A DNA stretch of 61,059 bases, the filler included, from Stramenopiles sp. TOSAG23-6 (Eukaryota), in assembly GCA_900128565.1 (NCBI GenBank). It is 13 parts of 13 records of this genome, joined end to end, with 100 filler letters (N's around TTAATTAATTAA, not from the genome) between each part and the next. Parts side by side here need not be neighbours in the genome. Positions count along the whole stretch, not along the records: positions 18,901 to 23,513 come from LT637113.1; 12 more parts are not named here. One strand, 5' to 3'. Below the pieces are notes generated by a model. It ran no database searches. It was given only the letters and a program-made list of their open reading frames with translations, and had not been told where the DNA came from. Position numbers and translations under genes: made by a program. This document shows, piece by piece, positions 1,906 to 47,161 of the stretch (positions are counted from its first letter, which is position 1; every line of letters starts with the position of its first letter).

Positions 1906-1939
<34 letters not shown>

Positions 1940-2624
1940 GGATTTTTTTTTAAATATTTTGTACATTACATATTAGTCCTGAAGGTATTATTTGTACCGA
2001 TATGATACTTCGAACATTAGAACAGTTATCTCCAGAATTTGCAAGTGCCATCAGTTCTCAAATATTACGCTCAAAATTAGACTATATTGTACATGGGGCA
2101 GCATCACCATCCGATGTAATCACTTTGAGTAAAAAATATCCTGAATTATTGAAGCGAATAGATTCAAAAGTTTCTTCTACTGTAAACACTGAAATGATGT
2201 ATGTTTTATTTTTTTTTTTACAAAAAAATCGAATTTTTTTTTATAGTAAATTTTGTACCTAACAATTTTTTTTAGATTTCTTTGAAATATTTTTCCAAAA
2301 TACATGATGACTTCAAAAATGCCACAAAATGTCACATTGAAAAAGTTAAAACTTGGAGGTTATTTAGTATTATTTTTATTATTAACGAAACGATTGCAGA
2401 AATTAGCAAAGCATGGTTTATCTTTACTCTTTCGATGGACATTTACTGTTGTAACTATGTTGTACGCCAAACCTCTTTTGAAAGATTTTTTAGAAGGTGG
2501 TGAGGTAGATTTTAGTGTTCTAGTACAAAATTGTCAGACTTTGTTAATGAGGACGACAAAATTTGTTATTCATTTACTGAAAGATCAGTACCCCAAAGTT
2601 GCTATGATAAATTCGAGGATATAA
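915..2624 (+). CDS. Permuted papain-like NlpC/P60 (YiiX/YebB-like) protein; exons ~915-1892, 1972-2198, 2306-2624
   Basis: PGDIILVRS...YDHAAVVVG...GEPYN with downstream ICTD Cys; three ORFs join in frame after intron removal. Confidence 0.6.
1663..1782 (+). repeat. Two-copy 60-nt coding tandem repeat (SNSSGGxTQHTQLNSTQPDI)
   Basis: Direct comparison of 1663-1722 with 1723-1782. Confidence 0.9.
1893..1971 (+). other. Degenerate family intron GT...AT, phase 0 (a canonical GT-AG alternative 1891-1984 also keeps frame)
   Basis: GTACGTTTTC donor, AAATATTTTGTACATTACAT end; GGT|ATT in frame. Confidence 0.55.
2199..2305 (+). mobile_element. GT-AT introner-like intron, phase 2
   Basis: AT|GTATGTTTT...GTACCTAAC...AAAATACAT|G; the internal TTTAG at 2275 would give an in-frame TGA. 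Confidence 0.85.
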
Positions 2625-4766: not shown

Positions 4767-7453
4767 TCTTTTGGAAAACAGCAGTTCCAAAGAATTAATA
4801 TTAATATGTTGCATCGTCAACTTGATCGTGATTCACTAAGTGGCATTGGCATCGCTGGACAAGCTAGTCATGGTAGGTCTCCGGAAGAAATTGAAGCTAT
4901 GCGTCAACGTCGTGTACGTTCAGCTCTTGAAAGTGCTATTTTGTGGAACAAACAAGTCAAGCATATTGCAGCACATGCTCATGTTCTAGAAGCATGGAAG
5001 CAAGTACGTTTTCATCATGAATTTCAGATTTATTTTATTTTTTTGTACGAAATTTTGTACCTAACGACTTTTTTTTAAATATTTTTTCACAATACATGTA
5101 ATTAGTGTTGCTTTTCTCCAAGCTTTGACGGCACTACGTGAAGTTGTACGAGAAGGCGATCAAGAAGTTCTTCTTGCGCGACTCGTCATGTCGACACTCA
5201 CAAAACTTCAAGAGCATCCAAACTCTCCAATGACTTTATCTGAGCCTCTGGCTGACACTGTACTCATGCTCATGTGTAAGTTACGTGAGCAGTGTAAAAG
5301 TATGACATTATCAGTTTTACAATGTAGTCAACTTTTACGAAATATTCTACAATGTTTAGTGCGTGATGGTTCTGGAGGGCGCGGTGGTCTTTCTGGTACT
5401 ACACAACAAATGAGATGTTCACTTTATACATCATTATTGTTATATCTGCAATACACTCGGGATGCCCCCAACTACGATACAGATATAGAAATAGAGGGAG
5501 CTGAATTTGATGAAGCTACTTCCGGCGGTTTCACTTTAGATGCAAGTATGAATGTTCTACTTCAACAACATCATCATCGACATGCGTCTTCATCTACTGC
5601 ATTAGAACAACAAGCTATAAAAAGACGCCGTCAGCTTCTTCACTCAAACGTTCAAGTTTTAAGTGAGGTCGGTGAAGCTTTGGCCCAAACTCTTGTTAAA
5701 GATTCCTCTGAAGGCCCCCCCTGTTTGGCGTGCATTAGCATTATCTACATTAGGTGCCGCATTGGCGTATGACCGCGATGCGCGATGGCTACGCTTCATT
5801 CGAGAAAGTGGACATTTACAACGTCTTTTGGTTGCATTACGTGAAATGCCGATTACAATTGTTTTTCCATCAAAAGTTGCGACTATAGCAGAACAAACAC
5901 AGGCAGCTGGCACAATGGCTATATACGAAAGTGCTATGTCGTTATTTGTACGTCTGGCACAATCTCGTCTTGGGGCAGCAGCATTAGTGGATTATGGAGC
6001 AGTTGATGCTATTATTACATGTGCCGCATTACAACATCTCCCTCTCGAATTTGCAGATACAATGGATATCACTGTGTCACGTGATATGAATAGTGATGAG
6101 GGAGTATTGACAGTTACACCAATGCAATCTTTTCATCGTGTGTTGGTACCAGCACTACAATTAGTTTTGAGTCTATCCGTGTCAGTGCCGAAGGACCACC
6201 ATCCTATGAAGCTTCACCTTCTCACTCTTATCAAACAACGCCGAAAGTTATTTGCAGTAGTGCTTCGACAAGCTGCTTCCTCATGGGATAGACATCAAGC
6301 TGCAGCGGCAGCGTCAATGCGTTCTCAAATTTCAACACATGGTGCATCGATAGATAATAACAGAAATACAATAAATCATAATGGAAACATAGCAAGTCAG
6401 GTTGCAGCAGCTACCGCAATAGAAGCTGGTGAAATGGAACAATTAAATCAACTTCAACTTGTAACGGCCATTCTTTCCCAAGCAACAATCGACCCGCAAC
6501 TATTTAATCAGAATCTCGAACATGATGCGGAAAAACTGCGAAAACTTGTCCTTCGTGTAATGTGTAGATTTGTATCTGTTCCTGGTATATTTAAAGGAGC
6601 TGCAGTAAATGAAATTCATCCCATATATACAAATAATGGAAGTATGAATTTAGATCACGAATCTCCGCTTGGTATTCCTTCTGTAGGAGGTCTTGACAGT
6701 CCTCTTCCACCTAAAGCACAATTACGATATTTATCTCAAATTACAGTTCTTCGAAATTGTCTTTCTTTTTGCCGTAGACAATGTATTAATTTTGATCGCA
6801 ATGAAACATTGACTAGAGAACAATTATTTTCGCCACCTGACCGTTTGTTCAGCCTGTCTGCTGCGGTGAAGAATGACTTAAATGCTGATCGAATTGGGAG
6901 TAGTAGTTTTTTTAGTGGGATGGATTCCGTAAATGATGCAGGGCGTGGGAATGTTGCAAGTGAAATTTCAAAAATGGTTCGCCCTGATACGAAAGCGCAT
7001 CTTGATGTCACGTCTCTGGATGTAGTAGTTGATTGTATTAATAGGTGCGCTCTCAGAATTTATGATATCGAGAGGTATCAGAATGAAACACAGCCTGCTG
7101 ATTCTGATGATGTTCCTGATGTGCCTCGCCAGAATAATATTGGCATTTCTTACATGTCAACTGCGACTGGTGCAGGTCGTTTTGATGCACCCTTATCTGA
7201 TGGATCACATGCAAACACCGAACCACAAATGCTTTATTTTATTCTAGAAAGTGCTTTAGTTTTGGTTCACACGCACTTGATGTTGTTCGCCCAGGATGAC
7301 GATTTTGCAAGATATCGAGCTGGGTTACCTCATTTTGTCGAAGGGGTGACCTCTAATGTGACCGTTCTTGCGGCAGCTACCCCTCATTCATTTTTGAGAA
7401 GTATTTGTCATCGTCTTCATGAACTACCCCAAAATATTAAACATGCGACATGA
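4767..7453 (+). CDS. NUP205: Nucleoporin Nup205/Nup192-like, C-terminal part; intron 5004-5097; apparent 1-nt frameshift at C7 run 5715-5721
   Basis: AWKQ|VISVAF, TQQMRCSLYTSLLLYLQ, IYESAMSLFVRLAQSRLGAAALV, ILESALVLVHTHL resemble Nup205. Confidence 0.75.
5004..5097 (+). mobile_element. GT-AT introner-like intron, phase 0
   Basis: CAA|GTACGTTTT...CACAATACAT|GTA; downstream AGs at 5105 and 5122 are out of phase. Confidence 0.85.
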
Positions 7454-12170: not shown

Positions 12171-13968
12171 AGTTAGGTCCATCTTTGTCAACATGGAGCC
12201 AAGTTTTTCATCCACATCTTTGGNAGTAATTGTTACAGTTGAATCAGGCTTCATGTCCGAAGCGTCAAAAGATATATCATCCATCATTCTCTCCATGACN
12301 GTATGAAGACGCCGAGCACCAATATTTTCGACTTGAGTATTCATCTCTGCTGCAACATGCGCAATTCTTTGNATTGCTTCATCCTCAAAGACAAGTTTTA
12401 CACCATCTGTTTCAAGTAAAGCAATTTGTTGACGAATCATATTCACTTCTGGTTCAGTAAGTATACGTAAAAGATCTTTTTCTTTCAGACCATTCAATTC
12501 NACACGAATNGGAAGACGTCCCTGTAACTCTGGTAAAAGATCAGCGGGNTTACAATGATGGAAAGCACCAGATGCGATAAATAATATGTAATCTGTATTT
12601 ATGTTACCATGTTTGGTATTGATAGTGGAACCTTCAATTAAAGGCAACAAATCACGTTGCACGCCTTCATCAGANGCATCACCTGAATTACGACTACCCT
12701 CCGCATTGCAAATTTTATCTATCTCATCGATGAAAACGATACCATTTTGTTCTACTAGTTTTATTGCATCTGCAGTTAAATCACTATCGTCCAATATTTT
12801 TTCGATTTCATAATTTTCCAAAGATTTCCGAGCATCTGGAACCAACATTTTTTTTGTCTTCATTGTAGGTGTCGGTGGACTTCCAGCATTTCCACGACCT
12901 TGNAGCTTACTAATTAAATCAGCAATAGGAACTGCGCTAATACCATTTGCATCGCCACCACCAGCCATCAACGTCTGGTTGCCTGGAGGGGTAACAGGAA
13001 TCTCAACTTCGACTGCAATTTTATCGAGTTCTTTACTATGATACATTTTAAGCCACTTTTGCATATCATCTGGNTCTTCTGAACCAACTANCTGTTGAAT
13101 AATTTGGTTTGCTACTTTATCCTGAACCATAGGTAAAAGAGCTTCCCGTTTTAGCTTTCGCATTAAAGTAATGTATTGTAAAAAAAAAGTCAAATTTCAA
13201 ATTCATTAGTCATAACAAAAATTACAAAAAAATTGTCTAGAAAAAAATCTAAAATTACAAAACAANTTGTCTAAAAAAAAATCTAAACTTCTTAATAAAA
13301 ACATACATGCCCTGTTCCACAAGGTCTCGAATGATCATATCCACGTCACGACCGTGAAAACCAACTTCAGTGAATTTCGTTGCTTCGACTTTTAGAAAAG
13401 GTGCATTAGCAATCTTACTCAATCTCCGTGCTACTTCAGTTTTTCCACAACCAGTTGGGCCAATCATGAGAATATTACGTGGCATTACTTCCTTTTGGAG
13501 TTCNTCGGGAAGTTGCTGACGCCGCCAGCGATTTCTCATGGCAACTGCCACAGCTCGCTTTGCGTCAGACTGTCCTACAATATGCCTCTCGAGTTCAGTG
13601 ACAATTTCGCTAGGTTTCATATTTTTCAGTTCTACAACTTTTGACATGACTGCTTTAACAGTTATTTCACTGTTATCTTCAACTAGACCAGACACTAAAG
13701 GATCCTTTTTTTTACTGCCCGAAGTGTCCCCATTCGTCGTGTCTGTAGAACTGGGGCCAGTTGATAAAGATTGTATACCTTGACGTGAAAACACAGCTGA
13801 GTGATTTCTTAAAATGGGTGTACCCGCCAAGATGCCATCAGACGCAGGAGAGCGAGCAGATGTATGTAATGAACGAATACAAATAGGAATAGTTCCTGTA
13901 GACCATTGCGTAGACCGCTTACCAAAGCTAGATAGAATACATCGAGCTGTTGCACCAGCAGAACTCAT
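12156..13968 (-). CDS. hslU: ATP-dependent protease ATPase HslU/ClpY (organellar); exons 13968-13307, 13170-12156
   Basis: [57 protein letters not shown]; transit-peptide-like N-terminus. Confidence 0.95.
13171..13306 (-). other. Diverged GT-AT intron, phase 2
   Basis: GGC AT|GTATGTTTT...TACAATACAT|T ACT gives RDLVEQGITLMR; branch-like TGACTAAT. Confidence 0.85.
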
Positions 13969-14183: not shown

Positions 14184-14300
14184 ATGTATTTTGGAAAAAT
14201 ATTTCAAAAAAAAACTAAAAAAAATTGTTAGGTACAAAATTTTTATAAAAAACCAAAAAAAAAAAAATCGATTTTTTGTAAAAAATAAAATAAAACATAC
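14184..14300 (-). mobile_element. GT-AT introner-like intron at contig end
   Basis: Full consensus; interrupts ThrRS just after LQRV, at the Tyr codon of the LQR(I/V)YG motif. Confidence 0.8.
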
Positions 14301-16444: not shown

Positions 16445-18114
16445 TTATAAGTTCAGCCGCAGATTACAATGATTAAGATTTTGACATAACTTTTGAAGAT
16501 TATGGAATAATAACCTTTTTGCTAATTTGTCATAATGGCATGAATACTTTTCATGTGTGACTATATTTAGATCAACTAACAATAAAACACGCATTTCTCC
16601 ATCATCATCAAGATTTTGAAGTAATTGCTTCACTGCTTCGCCGTTAAGCATCCTCGTATCCTGTTTATTCACAGACAGTAAATATAGTCCGTGTAAACGT
16701 GAACCAATATTGTTGTCATCAATGTATAATCGAACAATGTTTCCGCCCGTGCACCTAGATGTTATTCCCAACAAGTGTATTCCATCTGGAAGAGGTTCTA
16801 ACGAAAACTTCATACCACTAATTCGCCCTTGAGGAAGCATCACACGTATGAAGCCACTATCCTTTATGTTTGCTTTAAGCTCCATTAATGCAAGATCAGT
16901 ATCTACATGAAGTTCAATTTTAATACTATCATCAAAATTGAATTTTTTACTTTGTTTCATTGAGTTGGAATATCGCTCATGTTTACTAACTTTTTTGGAA
17001 CATTCACTTGGTAGGATTTTGGTTGCAATTCCAGTTTTCGTTAGTCTTCTCCCCAACGATTGTGTAATCCTGTTACAATTATTTTCTTTTACTTCAAAAA
17101 TATCGTTTCTATTTTTTTTTTTAGGAATAATTGGGTTATAATCCGAAGCTAGTTGGGTAAGGGCGTCAGTTAGAATACTTATGCATTTTGTATTTGTTTG
17201 AAAAATCGGGGATTCCACATGTGACACATGTGTATTTTTTGGCTTTAGTGTTGGAGTTGCTACTGAAGCTTGGACAATTTTTTTATCAGTAGTTTCTGAA
17301 GAATGAAAACTCGATGTTTTATCTTTTGTTTCTTCGTCGATACTTTTGCACATCTTTTGTAAATCAACTTCAACCTTTGGGCTGTTTGAATCGGATGGCG
17401 ATTTTTCTACTAATGGAGGTAATGGTGGAGGAGGTGGTGGGATATCATCTAACCAGGAATCGTCCTCATCACTTTGTGAAATCTTAATTTCTTCTGGAGC
17501 ATGGCCGTCCATAATTGCAAAAAGACAACTCATTCCGCGCAATTCAAAAAACGAATCATTTTTTTTACTTTCCGCGTTTTTCATATGCCTATCAGTGTCT
17601 ATTTGACTTGATTTTATCACTTGTTTACTCATGTGGACGGGTTTATTTTCCGCACTTATTTTAATATTTGTGAGTGTTTTACGAGCTGAAACTACTGACT
17701 TTGCTATACTTTCTATCTGAGACCGTTTTTTTTTTTTTTTCTGTTGATGTATCTTCATATTAAAATTCTTTACAAATTGCATTCCTGAGTGCGAAGAACA
17801 TCTTTGAGTTACACAACCCAAAAGACTAACAGCAGTACTCACATCAAGCTTAATATCAGCATCTTGCATGAGATCAAAAATTTCATCCGTACGCTCTAGC
17901 AAAGCGTTGCTACAACACATTCTCAAAATGGCAACAACTTTTATAGGACAACGAAGGATCAGACGAATTTTTGCATTTGGAGGTGCAATGGATATTTCAT
18001 TATTATCATTAAGATTCAGAACCCGATCGGAATTAGAAATCTGTATTTTGTAAAAATATTTCAAACATTTTCAGAAATTTGTTAGGTACAACATTTTCAT
18101 TTTTTTTTTACACG

Positions 18115-18151
<37 letters not shown>

Positions 18152-18654
18152 GAGTTAGGTACAACATTTTCTAGTAAAAACAAATTACTTCTTTCAAATC
18201 GTGTAAAAGTTTCCAAACACCTGCGATGTTAGGTTTTGCGTTACCCGCTCCACAATAACGTGTAATCGATGCATTGATGCGTTTTACATCATTATTTACA
18301 TTTTCTTGTACACGTGACAAACCTGCCATGGCTTTTTGTTCCGCCTTTTCCGCTGGTGTTAACTTTTTTTTTTTTGCTGTTTTTTTATTTTTTTTAGTGT
18401 TTTTAGAATTTTTACTTTTTCCATTGTTCTGATTATTTGATATTGTATTTGACTCAACTTCCTCAATATCCATTTTATCAGGCTCTACACCAGCAAACGC
18501 AAGCATTCGAGCGGTAGCAGCCATTTTAGAGAGATGTTTTGTACGACCATACCCTAGAGCATACATTGAATCATATTCACAAGTTGTCACGAAATCTCCA
18601 TCGCGCCCCGAAGGTTTATCAAAATCTCGATCTGTTGTTCTAGATGTTTTGTAC
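16445..18654 (-). CDS. Hypothetical protein, 5'-truncated; exons 18654-18189, 18040-16445; PPR-like helical segment, Pro-rich tract
   Basis: Two ORFs join in phase 0 across intron 18041-18188. Confidence 0.55.
18041..18188 (-). mobile_element. Family intron with AG acceptor (GT-AG), two TACCTAAC modules
   Basis: GAA|GTAATTTG...AAATATTTTTACAAAATACAG|ATT, phase 0. Confidence 0.75.
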
Positions 18655-18800
18655 ATGTATTGTGGAAAAATATTTCAAATTGTTTTTCGTTAGGTACAAA
18701 ATTTTTATAAAAAAAAAAATCGATTTTTGTGTAAAAAAGAAAATGAAATATTTCAAAAAAAAATTCTAAAAAATTTGTTAGGTACAAAATTTCGTACGAA
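18655..18800 (-). mobile_element. 3' part of a GT-AT family intron with duplicated branch module
   Basis: ...CCACAATACAT|G; GTACCTAAC twice. Confidence 0.75.
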
Positions 18801-19026
18801 NNNNNNNNNNNNNNNNNNNNNNNNNNNNNNNNNNNNNNNNNNNNTTAATTAATTAANNNNNNNNNNNNNNNNNNNNNNNNNNNNNNNNNNNNNNNNNNNN
18901 AAAAGTAATAAATCTCAAATTGAAATGAATGATGAAAACGTACTAACAAAAAAAAATCGTTTTTGTTTAGGTACAAAATTTTGTATGAAAAAAATTATAA
19001 ATTTGAAATGAATGATGAAAACGTAC

Positions 19027-20832: not shown

Positions 20833-23431
20833 GTGGAAAAAATGAATTGTATTTCATATCCAGCAAAGTTGATGTCCATGTCTAAATTATTCGTAGTTGT
20901 GGTAGTGTCTCTACTAATATTGAATCCGGTATTTGCTTTGTTCGAAGATGAAGTTGGTGTGGTTGACTGGGTACGACAAGGTATTGGTGCCGTACGTTCA
21001 ACTATATTTCGGGGAAAGTACACGTATGTTTCTACTGAATCTGGTGTCGTTGCCAAATTGGTAACTTCGAGTGGTGAAATTCAATGGAGGCAAGTACTTC
21101 CACGAAATGAACGTGTTGAAGTATTGCAGTATAGTAAATATGGTGTACTTACTGTGACAAAACAGAAGATGGTTCGTCTTTTTGACCGAAAGACTGGAAA
21201 TCTCAAATGGGACAGCTCTTTTACGAATTCTGCCGAGCAGCAGAATGATCCGAAGGATATATTGAGTCGTTTACACTCGTCCTCTTACATGGAAGGTGAG
21301 TGGATAAGCGACTTTGATGGTGACAATATCGAAGACATTTTAATACTCTGCGATTCTCAACTTGTAGCTTTTTCAGGTGCAACGGGTGATCTTATTTGGG
21401 AATACAAAGCCAAAAATGGTATTATACTCCAAACTATGAATGTCGAATACTCTGTGATTCATGTAGCTGGTATGAGAGCACCAGACGATAAGCTTACGTC
21501 TAACCTTTTTATAGCAAACATTAACTTTGCTAATGGAGAGGTCGTCGAGAGTCACGAACAATTTGAAGCTAGGGTTCCTGGCTGCCATCTTGCATGGATA
21601 CACTCGAAAGAATATGGTGCTGCTCTTGCCTTCTTGGGATATGAAGCTAAAGCAATATCTATTTATATGTTTGCTTCTGGTAGTTTTAGTCATGAAACAT
21701 TTCGTGTCATTGGCCTCTCAGATGACTTTTCCTCTACAAATAGTCAATTGTCATTAAAACCATTACATGGAACTCGACGTAGACAAAATACGATGCTTCA
21801 ATTGAGTAATGACACGTCCGGTGATGTGTCGATTTTGAGTGCTAAATTTAGTAAAGATGGAAGTAAAATTGTGTATGAAATAATTGATTTTTCTGTCAAT
21901 AGAGAAGAAGAAAATTCAACTGTGTACACCGCAGTATCTCCTTCTTCAAAAATTGAATCGTATGTTGCGTCGATGCGTACAACAAAAAAAGGTTTAGTTA
22001 CACAAATCATTGATTCAAAAGGGAAACAAACGAAAAGAAAAATCGACATTTTGCCAAAGTTAAACTCAGAAACACATGGCACTCAAATCAAAACATTTTT
22101 TTTCAGAAATATTTCATATGATACATTTGAAGTTCTCGTCGTCCTTGAGGATTTGTCGACTGTCTTATTTAGCATTGAATACAATACGCCTAAAATTTCG
22201 TGGATCAGAGAAGAAGCAATTGCTACTGGGTATAAGCTTCTTGATGGTGATATCGCTAATACTACGTTAAATGATAATGTTGTTTGGGCAATACCTGACA
22301 CAACTCACGAGCATAATGCCTCCGGTCATCGTTCTCAAGATCCTTACCATATGACGTTTGCGATGAGATTGTTTGATCAAATGGAAAGAATTATTCATTA
22401 TGTTGAGAACACTTTAGCTCATTTAAAGACCAATATTAAATTGGTATCTATGATGCGATCGTGGGACCCAATGACGTTTTCTTCTGAATTTGACATTCTT
22501 TCAAAAAATACTTTTCATCACAGGAACAACTCCATATCTGGATATGAATCTAGTTTATTTGGGTTCGATCGATTACTTCTATTACTGACCACCCCTGGGA
22601 AAATATTTGCTATACATGTACGTTTTTATTATGAATTTTTTTTCGTACGAAATTTTGTACCTAAGATTTTTTTTAAATTTTTATTATGAATTTTTTATCT
22701 ATAATTTATTTTTCATACGAAATTTTGTAACTAAATTTTTTTTTTTCAATTTCGAATTTTTTTTTTCACAATGCATGGTGTTGATGGATCGATTGTTTGG
22801 TCAACTTACATTCCTGGGGCGACTAAAGTATTTGTGGACAATCAAGCAGAATTGGTGTTTGTTGTAAGTAAACAATCTAATTCGTACGAAATATCTGTAC
22901 TTAGTATGATTTCTGGTGCCAAAGAAAGTCATCATACGTTACCTAAAGATATCAAACAAATTTTGCCTTATAAGAACGTGAAGAATATTTCTAAAAGTGT
23001 GGAGCATCTTCCATTTATGTTTCTGATTGTTGATAAAGATAATAATGTAGCTTTATTTACGCATGATGCTTCAAAGGTAGATATGATACGAGATGTCATC
23101 AAGGATAACTATTCAGTGACATTTTATCAGCAACTCAATATTGAAAATGGGACTTTAAAAGGGTTTAACATGTATGTCTTATTTTTTTTTTCAATTTTGA
23201 AGTTTTTTTCATACGAAATTTTGTACCTAACGCCTTTTTTTTTTTTGAAATATTTTTTCACAATATATTCGCCCTGTTTCCAAAAGTGACAAAAAGAAGA
23301 GTAATAAAAGTAAAACCAATATCTCCTTTGATTATAAAGGACAAGAAATATGGTCGTTACATACAAAATATGATTGGCCTGATGAATCAAAAAATATATC
23401 GAAACTTGAATTAAATTCAAACGAGATTCAT
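20833..23431 (+). CDS. EMC1: ER membrane protein complex subunit 1, partial; exons to 22617, 22777-23171, 23269-23431
   Basis: ALFEDEVGVVDW, SGEIQWRQVL, WIREEA, FGFDRLLLLLTTPGKIFAIH|GVDGSIVW. Confidence 0.85.
22618..22776 (+). mobile_element. GT-AT intron, phase 0, internally duplicated
   Basis: CAT|GTACGTTTT...CACAATGCAT|GGT. Confidence 0.85.
23172..23268 (+). mobile_element. GT-AT intron, phase 2
   Basis: AT|GTATGTC...CACAATATAT|T; opens a stop-free exon to the next donor at 23432. Confidence 0.85.
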
Positions 23432-23680
23432 GTATGTTTTATTGTTTTTCAAATTCGATTTTTTTCGTACGAAATTTTGTACCTAACAAATTTAAGTTTT
23501 TTTTTTTTGAAATNNNNNNNNNNNNNNNNNNNNNNNNNNNNNNNNNNNNNNNNNNNNTTAATTAATTAANNNNNNNNNNNNNNNNNNNNNNNNNNNNNNN
23601 NNNNNNNNNNNNNGAAATTTGTTAGGTACAAAATTTCGTACGAAAAAAAAATAAATTTGAAATTCATACTGAAAACGTAC

Positions 23681-24788: not shown

Positions 24789-27700
24789 CTACCAAAATAA
24801 GTGTTCAAAATCAAATGGATCATCTTCTCGCGTTTTCTCTTTGGCTTGAGGAATCGATGCTTGGCATAATACATCAAATTCAGCGAATGGGTCGTCATTT
24901 TTTTCATGGATCTCATTTTTGAAATTTTTCTTCAGTTTTTTTTTCTGACAGTTTTGTTCATTTGGAGAATTTGATGAAAATACGTCAAAAGGATCTTCTG
25001 AATTTGTAATTTTTGTTTGGGTTGGTGGCGAGGAACCCCAACCGACTGGCAAAAAAACATCATGTTTTTTATTTTGTATCGAGATAGCATTCGTTTTACT
25101 CAAATGAAGAGAGACATTGTTCTTTGAATTAAAATCATTACGATTTGTCTTGTTCGTCGACATTTCCTGAATTTTTGATATCAAAGATTCATCCAGATTT
25201 TCTGTATTGGTCAAATGAAATTCACCAGCAAACCCTAAATGCATGCTATATGAAATGAGACTACCATCTTGTAAATGAACTAATATGCAACGATCATCGC
25301 GCGACGCTGACAGAAGTGTTATTGGGATATCGGATGCATTTTCTATTACTCGATGTTCTTGTAATGTATTGCAAAAAAATATTTCAAAAAAATTCCAAAA
25401 TTTGTTAGGTACAAAGTTTTCAAAAAAAAAATTAAATGTGAAATTCATGATGAAAACATACATGTATGTGCCCAGAGGACTCTAATTTTGTGTAATGTTG
25501 AAGTGATAACGAAGCGTTTGTCATTTGAAATTAATAGTTGAGGAATACAAAATTCACTAACATCAATTTGTGCATACGCTTGTGAATAATACCCATTAAC
25601 AGAAAAAAGGGATAATTTACTGCCACGTAAAACTAAAAGTTTTCCGTCACTTAAAAATTCTAAAGCACGCACAGAATAGCTTCTTCTACTTCCATCGATA
25701 GTCATAGTATCGTTACAAGAGGCAGCAGTCAAAACTTTGAGGAATGAAGGTGGATAGATTTGATGAATTACACAAACGCCAGTGATATCTCCTGAAGCAA
25801 TTAAACCAACATCGTCATTGATGGACACACAGGAGATTGAAGCTTCATGTCCATACAAAATTTCTGGATAATTAGCCCCAGTCTTTCTATTCTCCTTCGT
25901 ATACTGTGAAATTCCAGCAAATATGACATCATCGCTACCGGTTACTCTTGATGATCCAGTATCCGAAGTTAATAGCTCACGAGGGCCAAATTCATCACTT
26001 AATGTATTCACCTTCCATAATCCTAGCGTACCATCTTTAGATCCGACGACTACCCATTTATCTAGTTCACTTAAACATATTGCTGTAGTTATACTATGTA
26101 GACCATCAACTCGTTGTAAAATATTTCCAGATTTAGCACCATAGGTACAAAGACTAACATCCGAATGTCCAGAACTTATTACAACTCTACCACGATTTCT
26201 ACTTTTTCCTAAAAGAGCAATGCCAGGGCGCGAGGAACCGGAAATCATCGATTGTGCTAGTGCAGTATGAGGTATGACAGTTACAGGAGAACTAGCAGGG
26301 GTAATTTGGACTGGAAAATCATTGCCACAATATCTATATAATATTCCATCACCATGCATATCAACTACAAAAAATGCACCATTTCCACTTTGATTTCCTG
26401 GTCGAGATGGAGGTGGTTTGTCACACCAAATTATTGCGACTGCTGGTCTACTCAAAGAAGCAATATTTTTCTTTTCTACATAAGATTTCGACATTGTCTT
26501 TGATTTTTCCACTGCAACAGGAAAATTACTTTGCATAGTTTCTTGGTGAGACATGTTTTTTGGAAAAATATTTCAAAAAAAATCTAAAAAAAAATGTTAG
26601 GTACAACATTTCGTACGAAAAAAATAAATTTGAAATTGAAAAAAAATAAAACATACATTCGCCGTGGATGTTTCTTTTGAAATAATTGTGATGGAGTTTG
26701 ACCAAATGAAGCAATTTGAGTTTCCATGGCTTGGCGCATCACAGGATCCGAAATCTGACGGAAATCAACATTTCCTTCATATGTCAAATGATAAAACAGA
26801 TTATTAGCTTTAACAGCCTCCGCGCCTGTCTGTTTGTATCCAAATATAAGATCAATCCAATGATGAAGTCGACTTGATACGTGATCACTTTCGAGTGCTA
26901 ATCGATTTAGACGTATAAATTCCTCGGCTGACGAAGCCCATGGAGGTAAAATAACATCATCAACAGGTAGACCATCTTGACGTGTACCAAATTGTAGTGA
27001 GTTACTATTCATTAAAAATTGAGGAATAGAAAACCACTCTGGTGTCAGTTCTTTGACATCACTTGGACTTTGTAAACAATTATTCCAAGTATTCTTAATA
27101 CTATAAAATAACCTATCGGGAATGTCAAATTTTCCTCCTTGCATTGATAACCCATAGGATGTATATGGTTCGATACGTAATAAATAATAAAGAACAGTTC
27201 CAACAGACGAATAATGAGATCCATACATAAATGGTGGTATCTCAGCATCATTTAATGATTCAAATCGCTCTAAAATATGACTCAAGCGCTCAGGATTTAA
27301 CGCTCCAATAGGTTTACTCAGATCTCTATACGTTTTTGGGTCTTCAAAATCTAAAGACTCCGAAGTATAATCTGAAATTACCCATGGCATAATTGGATAT
27401 TGCGTTAAATCATGATATGTCCTTCCAGCAGCATCATTTAAATGCATTAAATACTCCAAATTAGAAATTTTCCTCTGCTGCCATAAGTCAGTCCAATTAT
27501 ATGCAGATACTAAGTGCTCTGGGGTATAAAATTGAGAAGAACCAACATCACGTGCCATTAGCGGGGGTTTTAATTTAGAGATGATTTGAAAGCATTTCAA
27601 AGAAGAAGTGTCATCATGCAAATTAAGAAATATAGATGTACCATCATCAAAAAATATTTCAATAGCCGTCCTCTGAAGGAGATACCGACGATTTCTAATA

Positions 27701-28121: not shown

Positions 28122-28324
28122 ATGTATTTTGGAAAAATATTTCAAAAAAAAAAAAAAAAAATCGTTAGGAACAAAATTTCGTACGAAAAAAAAAATCGAT
28201 TTTTTTTTTAAAAAAAAAAAAAAANNNNNNNNNNNNNNNNNNNNNNNNNNNNNNNNNNNNNNNNNNNNTTAATTAATTAANNNNNNNNNNNNNNNNNNNN
28301 NNNNNNNNNNNNNNNNNNNNNNNN

Positions 28325-29630
28325 AAAAAGTCACCAAAAAAACACATACATATATATGACGGATCATACTGTAATCCATTGATAACACACAATCCTTGTA
28401 TTTGTGATGAATCTCTCGTATCGCTAGGTAAAGATCATATTGCTATATTTTTACCACCATTGTACGTTTTCGAAATTGAATTCCAATTTTTTTTTCGTAC
28501 TACATTCCGTACCTAACAAATTTTTCCACCAAAAACAATATTTTTTCGTAATACATGTATGTTTTATTTTTTTTTTTAACAAAAATATCGAATTTATTTT
28601 TCATACGAAATTTTGTACCTAACAATTTTTTTTTTTTTTGAAATATTTTTTCGTAATACATGGTTTACGTGTGGAAGATATCTCGAGGTGATCCGGAATT
28701 TTGTCGTATACAAATGTCGAATGATTCCTCCGATGTTGAAATAGATTCTTCAATTGAGCTGAATGATACAATGGATAGTAATATAACGTCTTGTTCAGTT
28801 AGTAGTGTACTTTCAAGTGATGCGACTGCTAGTAATAGTGATTCTATCATAAAAGTAGAGGATGGAGAATGGACATGTGCATTAGTTCAGACTCCGAAAA
28901 ATCGCGTGATATTCCGAAATTGTTTTATAAATAGTAGTGTTCATGGCGAGTTATTAATGATACTAGATACTTTGGGTTTTGCCTGTTTTTGGGGTATGAC
29001 AAATATAGATAGGAATGGAAATATCATGACAAGACCAACCCTTTCAGAAGTTGACGTGAACAAATGTGGTTGTTTCGCAGTGCAAATCATACCGAGTGAT
29101 GTTGTAGATCGTTATTCATCCACTTTGCAACTTTCAAGATGTACTTGTGCATCGAAAGTTTGTATGTTTTCATCATGAATTTTAAATTTATTTTTTTCCT
29201 AAGAAATTTTTTGTACCTGACAAATTAAAAATTGAAAATATTTTTTCACAATACTTGTATTTCATGGTTTGATGAATCGAAAAGCTCTTTATTCATAAGT
29301 TGTATACAAATTTCGAATGATGAAAATGAAAATGAAAAGGTTGTGGTCCAAGAACCCATTTGTGTAAAGTTGCCTATTGTAGGAAGACCTGTGTTAGTCA
29401 AAGGTATTACATGTCGGAAATGTTGTCATAATCGTCTTTTAGACTCTAGCCATGAAATGTCGCTTCTTTTATTAGTACCTTCATATATGAGTGGTAAAAA
29501 TTCAGAACAGCCAGTGTGGTGGGCTGCGTGCTTTGATTATGATGATGAAAGTTCTACAATTTTGAAAAATATTTCTCCTCCTTTTGAGGGGGAATCTATT
29601 ATGAAAATGGGAAAACGATTGTTTTCGTGA
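28325..29630 (+). CDS. Hypothetical protein, 5'-truncated; exons 28325-28461, 28662-29161, 29257-29630
   Basis: Continuous frame after removing family introns (IFLPPL|VYVWK; SKV|CISWF). Confidence 0.6.
28462..28661 (+). mobile_element. Two abutting GT-AT introns (28462-28556, 28557-28661) with no exon between them
   Basis: ...CGTAATACAT|GTATGTTTT...; each unit has its own donor, TACCTAAC and acceptor motif. Confidence 0.8.
29162..29256 (+). mobile_element. Family intron ending in TT (equivalent by sliding to GT-AT 29166-29260)
   Basis: T|GTATGTTTT...CACAATACTT|GT, phase 1; TTGTAT repeated at both ends. Confidence 0.75.
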
Positions 29631-31256: not shown

Positions 31257-32880
31257 ATGGCATCCAATGATGGAAATTATCGTGCGAAATATGAAAATCC
31301 ACTGGTCCATCGGTATGCTTCTGCTGAGATGAGTGCTGTATGGTCTCCTGCAAAAAAATTTGGTACTTGGCGAGAGTTGTGGCTTGCGCTTGCACGTGCT
31401 GAACAAGAGTTGGGCTTAGATATTACCGACGAACAGATTCAAGAGTTGGAGTCCAACATGACCAACATAAACTACAAAGTTGCCGAAGGATACGAAAAAA
31501 AATTTAGACATGATGTAATGAGCCATGTTCATGCATGGGGTGATCAATGTCCCAAAGCAAAATCAATTATCCATCTCGGTGCTACGTCCTGTTACGTCTG
31601 CGACAATAGTGAAGTGATCATGCTAAGAGACGGTATGAAACTATTATGTCGTCGTCTATTAAAATTTTGCAAAGTGTTAGGGGATTTTGCCGAGCGTCAC
31701 AAAGCACTACCCACACTTGGATTTACGCACTACCAACCTGCACAATTGGTTACTGTGGGGAAGCGTGCTGTATTATGGCTCCAAGATTTTCTCATGGATT
31801 TTGAAGAGTTAGACCGGCGAACAAAAAATCTTCCCATGCGCGGAGTTAAAGGCACTACAGGGACACAAGCAAGTTTCTTGGCATTATTTGACGGTGATCA
31901 TAATAAAGTAAAATCATTGGGGTCGCGTGTTGCAGAATTGATGGGATTTGAACGAGTCATTCCAGTCTCAGGTCAAACATATACACGAAAAATAGACTTT
32001 CAGATTCTCAGTATATTGAGTGGTATTGCACAATCGGCGCATAAAATGGCAATTGACATTCGTCTTTTAATGAATTTAAAGGAGGTTGACGAGCCTTTTG
32101 AAAAGAATCAAATTGGCTCCAGTGCCATGTACGTTTTCATCATTTATTTCAGTTCCAAAGTTTTCAATGATTTCAAAGCAAAAGTTTTTTGTACCTATTT
32201 TTTGTACCTAACGAACTTTTGATGTAGCATTTCTTTTCACAATATATGGCATATAAACGAAATCCAATGCGATCTGAGAGAGTATGTTCTTTAGCAAGGT
32301 ATGTCATTTCACTGACAGCAAGTGCAGCGAATACGCATGCACAGCAATGGTTTGAAAGATCTCTGGATGACTCGGCTATTCGTCGTATTAATCTCCCAGA
32401 AGCATTTCTTGCGACTGTATGTTTTCATCATGAATTTCAAATTTATTTTTTTTTCCTACGAAATTTCGTACCTAATCTTTTTTTTTTTTTTTGAGTGTTG
32501 CGACTCTATATTTTCGTCTTTTCAATTCCAAACGAATTATCCAAATTTATATTGTACCCTAAAGATTTGTTTTACTAAAAAAATATTTTTTCACAGAATA
32601 TGATGTCCTTTTACGTATTATGGAAAATGTACGTTTTATATGAATTTCTAATTTAATTTGTTTTTTTCGTACGAAATTTCGTACCTAACAAATTTAAAAA
32701 AAAATTTTGAAATATTTTTTCACAATACATGTCATTTCTGGTTTAGTTGTTTGGCCACAAGTGTATATTTTCATCATTCATTTCATTATCAATTTCAATT
32801 TTCTAATCCAATGTTTCTGTACCTAACGAAGTTCAAATTTGATATATTTTTTCACTATACATGATTCATAAACACATCAT
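31257..32880 (+). CDS. ADSL: Adenylosuccinate lyase, 3'-truncated; exons 31257-32128, 32248-32416, 32602-32628, 32731-32762, 32863-32880
   Basis: [52 protein letters not shown] signature. Confidence 0.97.
32129..32247 (+). mobile_element. GT-AT intron, phase 2, inside the SSAMxYKRNP signature
   Basis: GCC AT|GTACG...CACAATATAT|G GCA. Confidence 0.92.
32417..32601 (+). mobile_element. GT-AT intron, phase 0
   Basis: ACT|GTATG...CACAGAATAT|GAT; the CAG at 32596 is out of phase. Confidence 0.88.
32629..32730 (+). mobile_element. GT-AT intron, phase 0
   Basis: AAT|GTACG...CACAATACAT|GTC. Confidence 0.9.
32763..32862 (+). mobile_element. GT-AT intron, phase 2
   Basis: GT|GTATATTTTC...CACTATACAT|G ATT. 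Confidence 0.85.
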
Positions 32881-33032
32881 GTATGTTTTATTTTTTTTTC
32901 AAATTCGATTTTTTTTCGTACGAAATTTTGTANNNNNNNNNNNNNNNNNNNNNNNNNNNNNNNNNNNNNNNNNNNNTTAATTAATTAANNNNNNNNNNNN
33001 NNNNNNNNNNNNNNNNNNNNNNNNNNNNNNNN

Positions 33033-33084
<52 letters not shown>

Positions 33085-33169
33085 CATTTTTTTTTTTTTT
33101 TTTTTTTTTTACGAAAAAAAAAAAAATTGTACCTAACAAATTTAAGTGAAATATTTTTCCAAAATACAG

Positions 33170-35500
33170 TCACTAGATTCTTTAGGTAAACGATGGAAAT
33201 ATAGTCTTGCATATGATCAAAATAACTTTTACTTTTGGTTATTTGGTGGACAACGAATTTGGCATGTATGTTTTTTTTTTATGAATTTATTTTAGTTTTT
33301 TTTTCGTAGTAAATGTTGTACCTAACAATTTTTTTTTTGGTAAAAAAATTTTGAAATATTTTTCCACAATACATGGTTTTGCAAAGGCATCTCAAGCATC
33401 AAATGATTGGGACATTACTGATGCAGACAATTTCCCAAAAGGCGGTTTTTTAGATGATTTATGGCAGTTTACACTACAAGAAAAATTTCATTATGTTTTA
33501 AAAATTCAATATTTACAAAAATCGCGTTTTTTAATGGCTGAATTTGATACTGAAAAAGCAACACATGTTGCGGATAAATCGAATCAATTTGCACATTTTA
33601 AATTTACAGTTGTACCCGGTTCAAAAATTACAAAAAAAGGAAATTTGGAAATTAAAATTTATCAAATTCAAAATACATTTACTCAGGAATATCTTATTTC
33701 TGAAGAGGATGATGATGGAAATTATGTATTAAAAACGACACAAAATCAAGCCAATCCTAAAACTCATTTTCAGGTTGAAAAAAGACAAAGAAATTATTAC
33801 ACTTTACGCATTGATAATACGGATGAATTAGTATCTAGTTATGCAGATGGTTTCAATAGTACTCATGTACGTTTTAGTTTTTTTTTACAAAAAAAACAAA
33901 AAAACATTTCGTACGAAATTTTGTACCTAACAAAATATTTTAGATTTTTTTTTTGAAATATTTTTCCAAAATACATTTTCGTGACGTTCCAATTCAATTT
34001 GTTGACTCAACTATTGGAGAAGATATTGTGAATGATTATAGTGTTTTATTTCAAATTGAAGCCTATGTAGAATTTAATCTAGTTGAAAAGAAAGCAAAAA
34101 AATCATGTTTTCAAAATCCTGGAGACGAGTGTACGTTTTCAATTTCGAATTTCAAATTTTTTTTTGTTTTTTTTTTCATACGATATTTTGTACCTAACAA
34201 TTTTTTTTTGATTTTTTTTTTCACAAAACATGGTCGCAAAGGAGAGATGTAAAGTGTAAAGAAATTTGGCCGCCTGGTAGAGCTGGTCATGAAATGGTCT
34301 TATACAACTCAGGCTTATATATGTATGTTTTTTTTTTGGATAATTTTTTTTTTAACCGGTAAAAAAAAAATCGATTTTTTTTTTTTTTTTTTTCGTACGA
34401 AATTTTGTACCTAACATTTTTTTTTTAGAAAAATTTTGAAATATTTTTCCAAAATACATGTTTGGAGGGTATAGAGTCAATTTTCCATATCCTTATTCGA
34501 CTTCATCTGGTGCTGGAATATCAACTGCCGGAATACAAGGTGAAGAAGGATACAGTGCATCTCCAAATACTCCAACATTTTTAGATGATTTTTGGGCTTT
34601 TAATACCACAACTGGATTTTGGGCCACAATTCAACCATGTATGTTTTATTTATTTTTTTTTTTTACCGAAAAAAAAAATCGAAAATTCTTTTTCATAGTA
34701 AATTTTGTACCTAACAAATTTGAGTTTTTTTTTCAAATATTTTTCCAAAATACATATAGTCCACGAAATCCTGGACCGCGTATGGGATATAACATGGTTG
34801 TTGCAGGTAATACACTCTTTATGTTTGGTGGTTATAAATCAAATGTATTTAATAATGAAGTTTGGATGTTTAACGTTACATCAAATATTTGGACTGAAAA
34901 AGAAACATTTGTCCATGTATGTTTTAGTTTTTTGAAAATTTGATTTTTTTTTTTTTTTTTTTTTCATAGGAAATTTCGTACCTAAAAAAATTTTTTTTTT
35001 TTTTTTGAAACTAAAAAAAAAAAAATTTTGAAATATTTTNNNNNNNNNNNNNNNNNNNNNNNNNNNNNNNNNNNNNNNNNNNNNNNNNNNNNNNNNNNNN
35101 NNNNNNNNNNNNNNNNNNNNNNNNNNNNNNNNNNNNNNNNNNNNNNNNNNNNNNNNNNNNNNNNNNNNTTTTTATTTTTTTTTTTTTTTTTTTTTTTGTT
35201 TTTTTTTTAATTTTTTTTTTCGTACGAAATTTTGTACCTAACAATTTTTTTTTTTTACTAACCAAAAAAAAAAAAAAAATTTTGAAATATTTTTTCACAA
35301 TACATGTACGTTACGAGTCTTGTATAACAGACAAACTTCCACCATTAGAAACAGATGACACAGGAATCATTGTATATCCAGATATATTCCCTTGGTGTGT
35401 CGCAGAACCTGTATCATCATCCATTCCTCCACTTTTTGCAGGATCTTGGGGATATTGCAACTGTGCGAATTGTAAGGAATGGGATACTCGTGGTGTGTAT
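33170..35500 (+). CDS. Kelch-repeat protein, partial; exons 33170-33265, 33375-33866, 33977-34130, 34232-34322, 34460-34638, 34756-34916, (gap) 35306-35500
   Basis: Spliced product gives RWKYSL..LFGG, WPPGRAGHEMV..LYM|FGGY, PGPRMGYNMV..LFMFGGY..NEVW. Confidence 0.8.
33266..34755 (+). mobile_element. Five GT-AT introns: 33266-33374, 33867-33976, 34131-34231, 34323-34459, 34639-34755 (plus AG acceptor at 33169 and donor at 34917)
   Basis: Each matches the consensus and each removal keeps the kelch frame. Confidence 0.88.
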
Positions 35501-35509
35501 GTACGTTTT

Positions 35510-35542
<33 letters not shown>

Positions 35543-35725
35543 TTTTTTTTTTTAAAAAAATTTTTTACCCTAAAAAAAAAAAAAAAAACAATTGAAGTTC
35601 CAAAATGTTTTTTTTTTTCCCTACATGATGATTTCAATTTTTTTTTTTTTTTTTTTTTTTTTTCGTACACAATTTCATACCTAACAAAACCAAATCAATG
35701 TTTGAAATATTCTCCTATACTATAT

Positions 35726-37567
35726 GTAAACATAACGAAAGAGTTCTACAACATAAGTGTGTTAAATGTCCTATAGGCTCAACACGAAAAGCAGGTGATA
35801 ATCCAACAGGTCAAAATACAAAATGTAAAAACGTTATATGTAAACAAAGAGAACATGTGATTAATCATGAATGTAAAAAGTGCAAAGAAGGATGTATGTT
35901 TTATTTATTTTTTTACAAAAAAATCGAATTTTTTTTTTTTATAAAAATTTTGTACCTAACGAGTTTTTTCTTGAAATATTTTTCCAAAATACATGGGGTA
36001 GACCACTTGGTGATAAAGCGGTTGGTCCTGATACGTTTTGTTCCAAATTAAAATTTTGTAATTTAGATATGTATGCTATACAAAATTTTGAATTCGATGA
36101 TAATGATTCTCAAAATAGTGAAATAATTGAGACTTCATTTATTAAATATACACATTATGCTAAAGGTACAGAGGATGGTGGTTCAATTTGTGTAAAATGT
36201 CCAAGACCAGATAAATCAGCAAAAAATGCTATTGTTACATGTACAACTGAATTTGATTCTAGAGTCTCTCAATGTCAACCTGGTCATTATATTGAAGGTG
36301 GTATTGAAGCTGATGCGTCGAATGATTCAAACAAGAATAAAAATGATTTGCATTTAGGTGCTCCAGATGTTTGTTGGCCTTGTACACCTCCATCTGTATC
36401 CTCTGATGTTTGTCAAGAAGATGAATATGTATGTTTTATTTTTTTTTTTTACAAAAAAATCGAGTTTTTTTTTATAGTAAATTTTGTACCTAACGTTTTT
36501 TTTTTCAATTTCGAATTTATTTTTCCAAAATACATTTACCTCACTGCTCTGGAAAGGAACGCATGGATGTTGGATGCTTACCATGTCCATCTATTTCACA
36601 TGCGACACGTGTCAGTTGCTCAGGCAAACCTCCAAAACATTTTAATCAAAGGAAATCAAATACTATGTCTACAATGAATGTAATCCTATCTTCATGGGTT
36701 ATTACTTGTGCAAAAAACTATCATAAATCTCAAGATGTATCAAAATGTATCAAAAATGAAACGATGAGTAGTGTAACTAATGATTCTATGGATGCAGCTA
36801 TCATTGTAAATGACTCCAATACAAAAATATCAGACAAAAATACAAAAATATCAGACAAAAATACTGGGCAGAATACTACACAGGGTATGGATACTGAAAA
36901 TTCATTTGTTGATCTACAAAGTGAAGCATGTATATTTTATTTTTTTTCAATTTCGAATTTATTTTTCGTACGAAATTTTGTACCTAACAAAAAACATTTT
37001 GAAATATTTTTCTAAAATACATTCACAAATGTTTTTGTTGAGCAACAAAGTGAAGCATTTGTAAATATTTCTAGACGTTGGGAAATTGGGTATGAAAATA
37101 TTAAAAAGTTAAGTGGCGATGAAGAAAATATTGTACGTTTTCAAAATTGAATTTTTTTTTTGAAATTATTTTTTCATACGAAATTTTGTACCTAACAAAA
37201 AAACAAAAAAACAAAAAACAAATATTTTTTCACAAAACATCTTAAACTTGATGATTCTTTTTTCAGCATGAAACAAACGATTGAAGAAGCTGCAGATTTA
37301 CATAGAACATCAATGGAAAGAATTGTAGAATTAGAACAAATAATATTGAAAAAACAAATACATGTAAATGAAGAGAATTCGTGTGATGCTATGCAAAAAG
37401 GACCGACATTGTTCCCACAATTCATAAATTCATTTTTGAATAAAGAGACAAAAGATTTTATAAATGAAACTCCATTAAGTGTTTTAGCGGTTGCTATTGG
37501 AGTTGGTTTCAATGTAGCTTGGTCAATGACGAGTCTCTTATCTCTTGTCATGAAATCTTTCTGGTGA
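35726..37567 (+). CDS. Cys-rich (CxxC repeat) protein with C-terminal hydrophobic segment; exons 35726-35893, 35995-36428, 36536-36929, 37023-37132, 37241-37567
   Basis: Continuous frame to TGA at 37567 after removing four GT-AT introns. Confidence 0.7.
35894..37240 (+). mobile_element. Four GT-AT introns: 35894-35994, 36429-36535, 36930-37022, 37133-37240
   Basis: Consensus ends; phases 1, 0, 1, 0 all match the flanking ORFs. Confidence 0.88.
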
Positions 37568-46955: not shown

Positions 46956-47161
46956 ATGTATTTTGGAAAAATATTTCAAAAAAAAATCGTTAGGTACAAA
47001 ATTTCGTACNNNNNNNNNNNNNNNNNNNNNNNNNNNNNNNNNNNNNNNNNNNNTTAATTAATTAANNNNNNNNNNNNNNNNNNNNNNNNNNNNNNNNNNN
47101 NNNNNNNNNACGAAATTTTGTACCTAACGATTTTTTTTTGAAATATTTTTCCAAAATACAT

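Follow-up and report, generated by a model that had tools for sequence, protein, structure and literature searches.

An abundant family of GT-AT introners in a stramenopile genome assembly

The DNA considered here, hereafter called the window, is a stretch of 61,059 nucleotides (nt), filler included, from assembly GCA_900128565.1 of Stramenopiles sp. TOSAG23-6. It is composed of ~13 AT-rich contigs of ~4.7 kb each, placed in falling order of size and separated by linkers of the form N44-TTAATTAATTAA-N44 (window 4635-4734, then every ~4.7 kb), and neighbouring blocks are not genomic neighbours. Its genes, including those for adenylosuccinate lyase (ADSL), an EMC1-like protein, a BEACH/WD40 protein, an AAA ATPase and a Nup192-like protein, are interrupted by copies of a single repeat of ~90-160 nt. 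These copies form a real and abundant family of introners in a stramenopile, and the GT-AT ends reported in the original prediction, which was centred on a copy in the EMC1-like gene, were confirmed. The family is recognised as such because 40 similar loci were found, because their removal restores reading frames and because their borders read GT..AT.

The family census was established by an nhmmer search of the window with a profile hidden Markov model derived from 17 seeds, as the original prediction had suggested. The 45 hits obtained were merged into 40 loci, which corresponds to ~1 copy per 1.5 kb, while a single unrelated intron was found. The core 14-mer (at most three mismatches) was matched 104 times, compared to 22.9 +/- 6.1 times in shuffled sequences. 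The family consensus reads GTATGTTTT..TTTCAAATTCGAATTT..TTTTTCRTACGAAATTTTGTACCTAAC..T-run..TTTTGAAATATTTTTYCAMAATACAT. Eight of the 13 contigs begin or finish inside a family repeat, since a very abundant repeat breaks short-read assembly. Individual copies are listed in Table 1.

In the EMC1-like gene, carried by the contig at 18901-23513 (LT637113.1), the intron proper covers 22618-22776 on the plus strand (159 nt, phase 0). The span first proposed, 22613-22781, designated a real copy but included five flanking bases on each side. The borders read ...GCTATACAT/GTACGTTTTT...CACAATGCAT/GGTGTT, where slashes mark the junctions, and the upstream exon ends in ...ATACAT/. This copy contains two cores, which represent an internal duplication of ~70 nt, and its retention would lead to an in-frame stop at codon 23. 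The N-terminus of the EMC1-like protein matched human EMC1 (E 1e-7), and the spliced join GKIFAIH/GVDGSIVWSTYIP aligned to the human chain without gaps. A region-limited protein search for EMC1 homologues spanning the junction found none, and a search for solved-structure relatives of the downstream EMC1-like exon was equally negative.

The borders of the 28 complete copies could be read as GT..AT in 27 cases, as TG..CA in 21 and as AT..AC in 15; several cuts give the same mRNA because bases are repeated at the borders. The only copy departing from GT..AT ended in GCAG. Intact 3' ends (37 in total) displayed AT in 33 cases, AG in three and TT in one, with ACAT as the final four bases in 28 of them, so that the downstream AT is almost invariant, as had been stated. 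Each copy displayed a GTAYGT donor, a T-rich tract and an ACAT acceptor, and its CCTAAC branch site preceded the end by ~35-50 nt. An A-rich patch, CAAAATAC, was conserved just before the acceptor and broke up the T tract, so that it may have a function unrelated to splicing. RNA folding gave no signal joining the ends of the element (mean z -0.43, ends paired in eight of 23 folds).

The single unrelated intron, located in an Rpn8-like gene, served as a control. Its flanking exons aligned to 8amz_U up to residue 87 and from residue 89 onwards, residue 88 being encoded by the split codon. This intron indicates that ordinary GT-AG introns occur in the host and begin with the donor also found in the family. 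It was preceded by TG and not by AT, i.e. with G at -1, and on that single example the T found at -1 is a family trait rather than a general rule of the host.

All 40 loci were in sense orientation relative to the flanking reading frames, with none antisense and none outside genes in the window. The one locus that automated orientation scored as opposite crosses a contig linker, and the four loci that received no automated orientation were situated among short exons of genes of known sense, or beside an open reading frame (ORF) of 146 amino acids. Retention would introduce an in-frame stop in 21 of the 28 complete copies, while the length was not a multiple of three in 19; with stops and length shifts combined, the frame would be broken in 26. 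Of 25 copies tested, 20 gave a single open frame spanning 30 codons to either side of the join once GT...AT was removed. In the remaining five, another intron was found within 90 nt.

The ADSL gene allowed the exon joins to be examined by homology. Once its first four introns were removed, the product formed one ungapped block (residues 8-372, or starting at residue 3 or 10) with six of seven stramenopile homologues, while in the seventh the only gap, one residue at position 188, was distant from every junction. The junctions were located at residues 290.7, 347, 356 and 366.7, the first within the conserved motif SSAM/AYKRNP. P0002, a full-length continuous ORF of 490 amino acids with 81.9% identity to ADSL, was devoid of all four tested introns. 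The original prediction held that intron positions shared with distant lineages would speak against it; for this one gene, the four positions were empty in P0002. P0003, a public model, evidently represents this same gene, with identity at 298 of 313 aligned residues. Compared with window 31257-32491, it displayed eight extra residues in SSAM-AYKRNP at intron 1 and then translated intron 2, and it omitted three stretches of real ADSL exon. The extra residues would be explained by GT-AG splicing imposed at an AG inside the intron. The family, its positions, its frames and the exact joining of exons by homology were thus directly observed.

ADSL intron 2 is composite. The eight exon bases immediately upstream of it, TTGCGACT, are found again inside the intron (32409-32510). 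On one side of this second TTGCGACT is a family copy truncated at its 3' end, on the other a second, diverged copy in which C has replaced the donor G. No other copy shows such an arrangement, which is suggestive of a truncated insertion flanked by an 8-bp duplication.

The 36 intact 5' ends were preceded by T in 33 cases and by AT in 23; A occupied position -2 in 24 and C position -3 in 18, while the base following the intron was G in 19 of 36. Of 1,812 background GTA sites in the window, 10.8% have AT in front, and both AT (binomial p 3e-14) and T (7e-11) were strongly overrepresented before the family copies. The anticipated AT enrichment of the flank profile was therefore present, and the flanks initially counted (AT in 18 and T in 25 of 26 complete GT-AT copies) became 19 and 26 of 27 upon recount. 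The insertion site reads (c)(a)T/(g) and the intron ends in CAT for CAG, exon and intron ends sharing the same T-for-G change. The classical proto-splice site is MAG/G, and the family site has this form with T replacing G. Among 27 units, the exon end was identical to the intron end over one nt (six units), two nt (11), three nt (seven) or six nt (one), with no identity in two; the exon end thus mirrored the intron end (T, AT or CAT) in 25.

AT flanks were more frequent in the GTAT subfamily (16 of 20) than in the GTAC subfamily (seven of 16; Fisher p 0.04). Copies with other flanks were more diverged (mean identity 0.70 vs 0.74, p 0.03), and this commoner occurrence of AT in less diverged copies fits decay of an upstream duplicate. 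It had been proposed that the upstream A, where missing, often falls on a third codon position. This applied to the four copies named (14300, 34131, 51611 and 57034) and also to 29162, but the overall pattern was non-significant, with five of 10 scorable non-A copies compared to five of 19 AT-flanked copies in phase 1 (Fisher p 0.24). Phases were deduced from ORF coordinates for 14300 and 51611 and from the ADSL alignment for 32763.

Taken together, the copies are probably small non-autonomous mobile elements acting as spliceosomal introns and inserted at the DNA level with a very short duplication or preference, a reading that we hold with somewhat more confidence than doubt. The element would bring its own donor, branch site, T-rich tract and ACAT acceptor and would sit in sense orientation in a coding exon, so that removal of GT...AT from the transcript would rejoin the exons exactly. 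New copies would most likely arise through DNA insertion at (c)(a)T/(g) sites, and the one to three shared bases (T, AT or CAT) would result either from duplication of a very short target or from a preference for such targets. The major spliceosome, taking CAT instead of CAG, would presumably then splice out the element and one copy of the shared bases. Spread at the DNA level and an origin of the shared bases by duplication are suggested by the flanks, and DNA insertion with a duplication of one to three bases is the leading model. RNA-mediated spread is its serious rival.

DNA sequencing data concerned the limits of the element. In DNA run X3, a metagenome, the best-supported similarity limits took in the upstream AT at 23430 (26 contigs) and at 19028 (21 contigs) and stopped at the terminal AT at 23268 (19 contigs). 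Summed word depth in the same run reached thousands over elements and ~6 over exons, ratios that are not copy numbers. In the RNA runs X6, X7 and X12 (poly-A and other), it amounted to hundreds to thousands over elements and 2-5 over exons; unspliced RNA, excised introns or carry-over of DNA may each account for it, and it is no measure of expression.

Several observations weigh against this explanation, or against parts of it. With three metatranscriptome runs, exon pieces of the contig at 18901-23513 were covered and no RNA contig bridged 22618/22776 or 23172/23268; for this reason we infer splicing of the copies from their sequence. In several copies, TTTTAG occurs ~10-15 nt past the branch motif and ~27-30 nt before the terminal AT, and the skipping of a TAG situated between branch site and AT is unexplained; in copy 2199, its use as acceptor would lead to a stop three codons past the join. 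The ends had been described as a terminal inverted repeat. Their complementarity, GTAT(G)TTTT versus AAAATAC, is real but extends over 4-8 nt only, while terminal inverted repeats of DNA transposons, including miniature inverted-repeat transposable elements (MITEs), usually measure at least 10 nt. An anchored complementarity score of at least 4 was displayed by 16 of 28 copies and by 3% of 2,083 interior control windows, and a score of at least 6 by no copy. There was no outer target duplication beyond chance (longest common string 3.15 vs 3.08 in shuffled pairings). Among the 20 ORFs or exon translations that were scanned, none gave a transposase domain or, accordingly, a sign of an autonomous element encoding such an enzyme. 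The 3' AT remained unchanged where the upstream flank was GT, TT, CT or AA. Two ADSL introns, 2 and 4, occur at conserved codons, Thr (ACT/) and Val (GT/G) respectively, which place C or G at -2; Val was found in all eight aligned ADSL sequences, and Thr in the window and in four of seven homologues, including the closest. An AT target was consequently not obligatory at these sites, at most T being shared, and the 3' AT of these two introns belongs to the element and is not a copied target. Finally, the sense orientation and genic location of 40 loci out of 40 fit an RNA-level route as well as they fit selection.

The transposon part of the explanation is therefore only partly supported. The original prediction considered the family as a MITE-like introner whose duplicated AT was co-opted as acceptor. 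A recently gained family of GT..AT introns did emerge from the data, and both the mirroring of exon and intron ends and the decaying AT flanks agree with such an origin, but ADSL introns 2 and 4 are not compatible with a strict 2-bp AT duplication. Non-AT upstream flanks did not co-vary with the 3' end, except in the ambiguous TT/TT copy at 29162. Tc1/mariner elements, which have a TA target and a TA duplication, were rejected, the flank being AT and TA preceding two of the 36 5' ends. Copies were also sought in three public collections with the pattern GTTAGGTACAAAN{30,60}AAAACRTAC, which was matched once at each of 20 metagenome, five genome and four viral loci. No family member was recognised by nhmmer among the 20 metagenome loci, and the nine genome and viral loci were judged to be chance matches from their bacterial or viral titles alone.

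Spread through RNA would involve reverse splicing into transcripts, reverse transcription and recombination, with (c)aT/g as a preferred site and nothing duplicated. It accounts directly for an element that is exactly a self-contained intron, found 40 times out of 40 in sense orientation in coding frames, and it agrees with weakly inverted ends, with the lack of an outer duplication and of a transposase in the scanned ORFs and exon translations, and with a flank resembling MAG/G with T in place of G. The head-to-tail abutment at 28556/28557 is hard to obtain by insertion into spliced mRNA, whereas a DNA element could easily re-target ...CAT/G. Head-to-tail joints of this kind were also encountered in 20 X3 DNA contigs, where they give a weak hint, their sides being shorter than 30 nt at 90% likeness. 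Reverse splicing moreover does not predict that the last bases of exon and intron mirror each other, and the CAAAATAC patch before the acceptor is odd as a pure splicing signal. We regard this route as unlikely overall, though it has to be taken seriously. Insertion as DNA between A and T without any duplication (TGTA...TACA), by a Helitron-like or another non-DDE element, with AT as a mere preference, appears less likely still. Helitrons insert between A and T, and their termini are TC at the 5' end and CTRR at the 3' end. The TG..CA reading fits 21 of the 28 complete copies and the lack of an outer duplication agrees with this view, but the ends of the family, (T)GTAYG...ATAC(A), leave only the site between A and T compatible with Helitrons. 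The sole palindrome is central, ~35-50 nt from the 3' end and not just before it, no Rep/helicase ORF was found among the 20 ORFs and exon translations scanned, and A is missing at -2 from 12 of the 36 5' ends. Helitron-type introners without duplications have nevertheless been reported in the available part of a recent survey (PMC12130899).

The two remaining alternatives call into question the nature of the introns themselves. The copies could be somatically eliminated DNA, comparable to the internal eliminated sequences of ciliates, or else gene-breaking junk or assembly artefacts; in favour of this, no RNA contig crossed a junction, and the short duplicated ends recall TA-bounded eliminated sequences. 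Essential conserved genes (ADSL, EMC1 and the BEACH protein) would then all be broken, and neither the uniform sense orientation nor the presence of a CTAAC branch motif, a T tract and the donor of the canonical host intron would be accounted for. The same element-bearing sequence was in addition found in an independent metagenome, and we give this view very little credence. Even more improbable is that the cuts lie two bases further left, which would turn the copies into AT-AC introns processed by a minor-type or AT-AC-tolerant spliceosome. With an AT flank the same mRNA results, and such cuts are possible in 15 of the 28 complete copies but impossible in the other 13. In the U12-type or AT-AC consensus, the donor is ATATCCTT and 10-26 nt separate the branch site from the intron end; copies of the family displayed ATGTAYG at their 5' end and the branch-like motif ~35-50 nt from the 3' end, and three of them ended in AG.

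The family has close counterparts among known introners, which are compared here on the basis of the available parts of the cited papers. In fritillariid tunicates, 3' AT is the commonest acceptor and non-canonical ends are transposon ends; 3' AT terminates 44% of the introns of Fritillaria pellucida and 34% of those of F. borealis, after an ordinary T-rich tract (bioRxiv 10.1101/2025.08.15.670264, PMC13326754). An exonic TAC in F. borealis gives a 3' AC, the acceptor being taken from the target duplication (PMC11282704). The original prediction drew a parallel with splice sites derived from target duplications; a non-AG acceptor of this origin already has a precedent in F. borealis. The family resembles the introns of F. 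borealis and F. pellucida by its 3' AT, its T tract, the exon bases mirroring the acceptor and its lineage-specific introns. It differs by its host, a stramenopile protist, by its canonical GTAYGT donor (the commonest classes of F. borealis are AG-AC and AG-AT), by much weaker inverted ends and by the fact that one family represents nearly all introns seen. The stramenopile family is consequently an analogue of Fritillaria-type introns and not a member of them, host lineage and donor being different.

Introners of other aquatic protists were also considered. Element IE1 of Micromonas pusilla takes its donor from the element and reportedly its AG acceptor from a 3-nt target duplication beside the terminal inverted repeats (PMC11282704). 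Both families inhabit a marine picoeukaryote, where short introns with an element-borne donor recur in high number across unrelated genes; in Micromonas, however, the acceptor is AG and the sites are canonical, whereas AT, one to three shared bases and barely detectable inverted repeats were encountered here. The introner elements of Amoebophrya are likewise repeated non-canonical introns with short direct repeats (3-5 nt there) overlapping exon/intron borders, but they display hairpin inverted repeats of 8-20 nt and no fixed terminal dinucleotides, possibly in the absence of U1 (PMC7789003), in contrast to the fixed termini, canonical donor and lacking fold signal of the present family. Like the introners of pan-eukaryote surveys (PMC9860276, PMC12130899), the family is enriched in genes of an aquatic host, with splice sites supplied by mixes of element, duplication and exon. 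These surveys include families without duplications or inverted repeats, and one family can dominate a genome. The curation passage of the 2025 survey gives AG and AC as 3' sites and indicates that families with unfamiliar sites were dropped unless supported by RNA (PMC12130899).

As to stramenopiles, the main text of PMC9860276 mentions neither "stramenopile" nor "MAST", and that of PMC12130899 does not mention "stramenopile". In the available parts of papers on single-cell MAST genomes, introns appeared in the methods only (PMC5778133) or as size classes only (bioRxiv 10.64898/2026.04.17.719054). The word "introner" was absent from the best-matching literature on stramenopile or MAST heterotrophic flagellates, among the matches listed. 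Searches for published GT-AT or GU-AU introns returned passing mentions only, the spelling GT/AT with a slash not being searchable. Supplements being outside this scope, we found no published description of a GT-AT introner family in stramenopiles, the closest being the introners of Fritillaria and Micromonas.

The host was characterised through its genes and through environmental data. The large ADSL exon (31257-32126) displayed stramenopile protein matches throughout (oomycetes, diatoms, brown algae and labyrinthulids), the closest named protein being a EukProt coding sequence labelled GSMAST32... (a MAST-3-type label), and seawater metagenomes contained as much as 69% of the words sampled from two contigs. 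On the strength of these matches, the host is called here a putative MAST-3-like marine stramenopile. The AAA ATPase gene (13309-13971, minus strand) gave only generic AAA matches in Pfam and is one that we take to be HslU-like. HslU is a bacterial-type protease subunit which, to our knowledge, is absent from animals and fungi; since the gene bears a family intron, it belongs to the eukaryote.

Table 1. Copies of the introner family, parts of the copy in the EMC1-like gene and related features (window coordinates).
Feature	Position	Strand	Remarks
Complete copy	1893..1971	+	divergent interior; flank GT
Complete copy	2199..2305	+	flank AT
TTTTAG inside copies	2270-2280, 33940-33950, 34420-34430	+
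TTTTAG inside copy	26575-26585	-
Complete copy	5004..5097	+	flank AA; adjoins Nup192-like ORF
Complete copy	13171..13306	-	AAA ATPase gene; different interior, same ends
Copy	14184..14300	-	3' end against contig linker; flank TT
Family-related intron	18041..18240	-	GTAATT...ACAG (AG end)
Composite copy, 3' part	18655..18800	-	cut by contig end
5' part	18901..19026	-	second 5' end nested at 18943; cut by contig end
Exonic AT before donor	22616..22617	+	last two bases of CAT His codon
Donor end GTACGTTTTT	22618..22627	+	first six bases are those of the unique canonical host intron
First core TACGAAATTTTGTACCTAAG	22646..22665	+	palindrome plus branch-like CTAA
Second core TACGAAATTTTGTAACTAA	22716..22734	+	likely branch site of this copy
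3' end CACAATGCAT, terminal AT	22767..22776	+
Complete copy	23172..23268	+	same EMC1-like gene; ends ATATAT
5' part	23432..23513	+	cut by contig end
5' part	23614..23680	-	flank TA; cut by contig end
Complete copy	25364..25461	-	BEACH/WD40 gene
Complete copy	26553..26656	-	directly after BEACH domain exon
3' part	28122..28224	-	cut by contig end
Two complete copies	28462..28661	+	abutting head to tail (28462-28556, 28557-28661)
Copy	29162..29256	+	flank TT; 3' end ACTT; GT..AT only if both cuts +4
ADSL intron 1	32129..32247	+	inside SSAM/AYKRNP motif
ADSL intron 2	32417..32601	+	composite; flank CT (Thr codon)
ADSL intron 3	32629..32730	+
ADSL intron 4	32763..32862	+	flank GT (Val codon)
ADSL intron 5, 5' part	32881..32932	+	cut by contig end
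3' part	33033..33169	+	ends ACAG
Single gene with 12 further copies	33266..37240	+
Copies in this gene	33266-33374, 33867-33976, 34131-34231, 34323-34459, 34639-34755	+
Further copies in this gene	34917-35039 with 35169-35305, 35501-35725	+	N gap between the first two
Last copies in this gene	35894-35994, 36429-36535, 36930-37022, 37133-37240	+
3' part	42419..42473	+	at contig start
Complete copy	42752..42838	+
Control intron, Rpn8-like gene	44604..44801	-	unique, canonical, GTACGT...TACTAAT...TAG, 198 nt
3' part	46956..47009	-	at contig end
3' part	47110..47161	+	at contig start
Complete copy	51174..51281	+
5' part	51611..51699	+	flank GT; cut by contig end
5' part	56480..56545	-	donor GTAGGT; cut by contig end
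Complete copy	56910..57034	-	ends GCAG (GT..AG)

The two abutting copies are identical over their last 20 nt (28537-28556 and 28642-28661) and share a CGTAAT variant unique to them in the window, which suggests gene conversion or local duplication. In the Nup192-like gene, two long frames overlap at a run of seven C (window 5700-5730), probably a one-base assembly or amplification error and not an intron. Four tandem units of 87 nt with 80-85% identity (repeat family D10) were found within a reading frame at 51800-52249. The ORF at 20014-20547 has, by eye, the look of a putative Sm-fold protein followed by two CCHC zinc knuckles. A scan of the window with Rfam for small nuclear RNAs and other RNA families returned no match.

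A broader reading, which remains tentative and which we rate slightly below an even chance, is that one element supplied almost all introns of this uncultured marine stramenopile lineage (~thousands), that its major spliceosome now takes CAT as the main acceptor beside CAG and that genome-wide 3' AT splicing arose here a second time, independently of the Fritillaria tunicates. If so, the last base or bases of the acceptor would be made by the insertion itself while the normal GT donor is kept. The family would then constitute an independent natural experiment on change of the 3' splice site, in which the donor is canonical, the acceptor G has become T and the two ends can be separated. With ~1 copy per 1.5 kb and one unrelated intron in the window, it also bears on intron gain in bulk. 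Standard gene prediction misreads introns of this GT-AT family, as in P0003, and thousands of sites are therefore likely to be corrupted in protein catalogues of the lineage obtained under the GT-AG rule.

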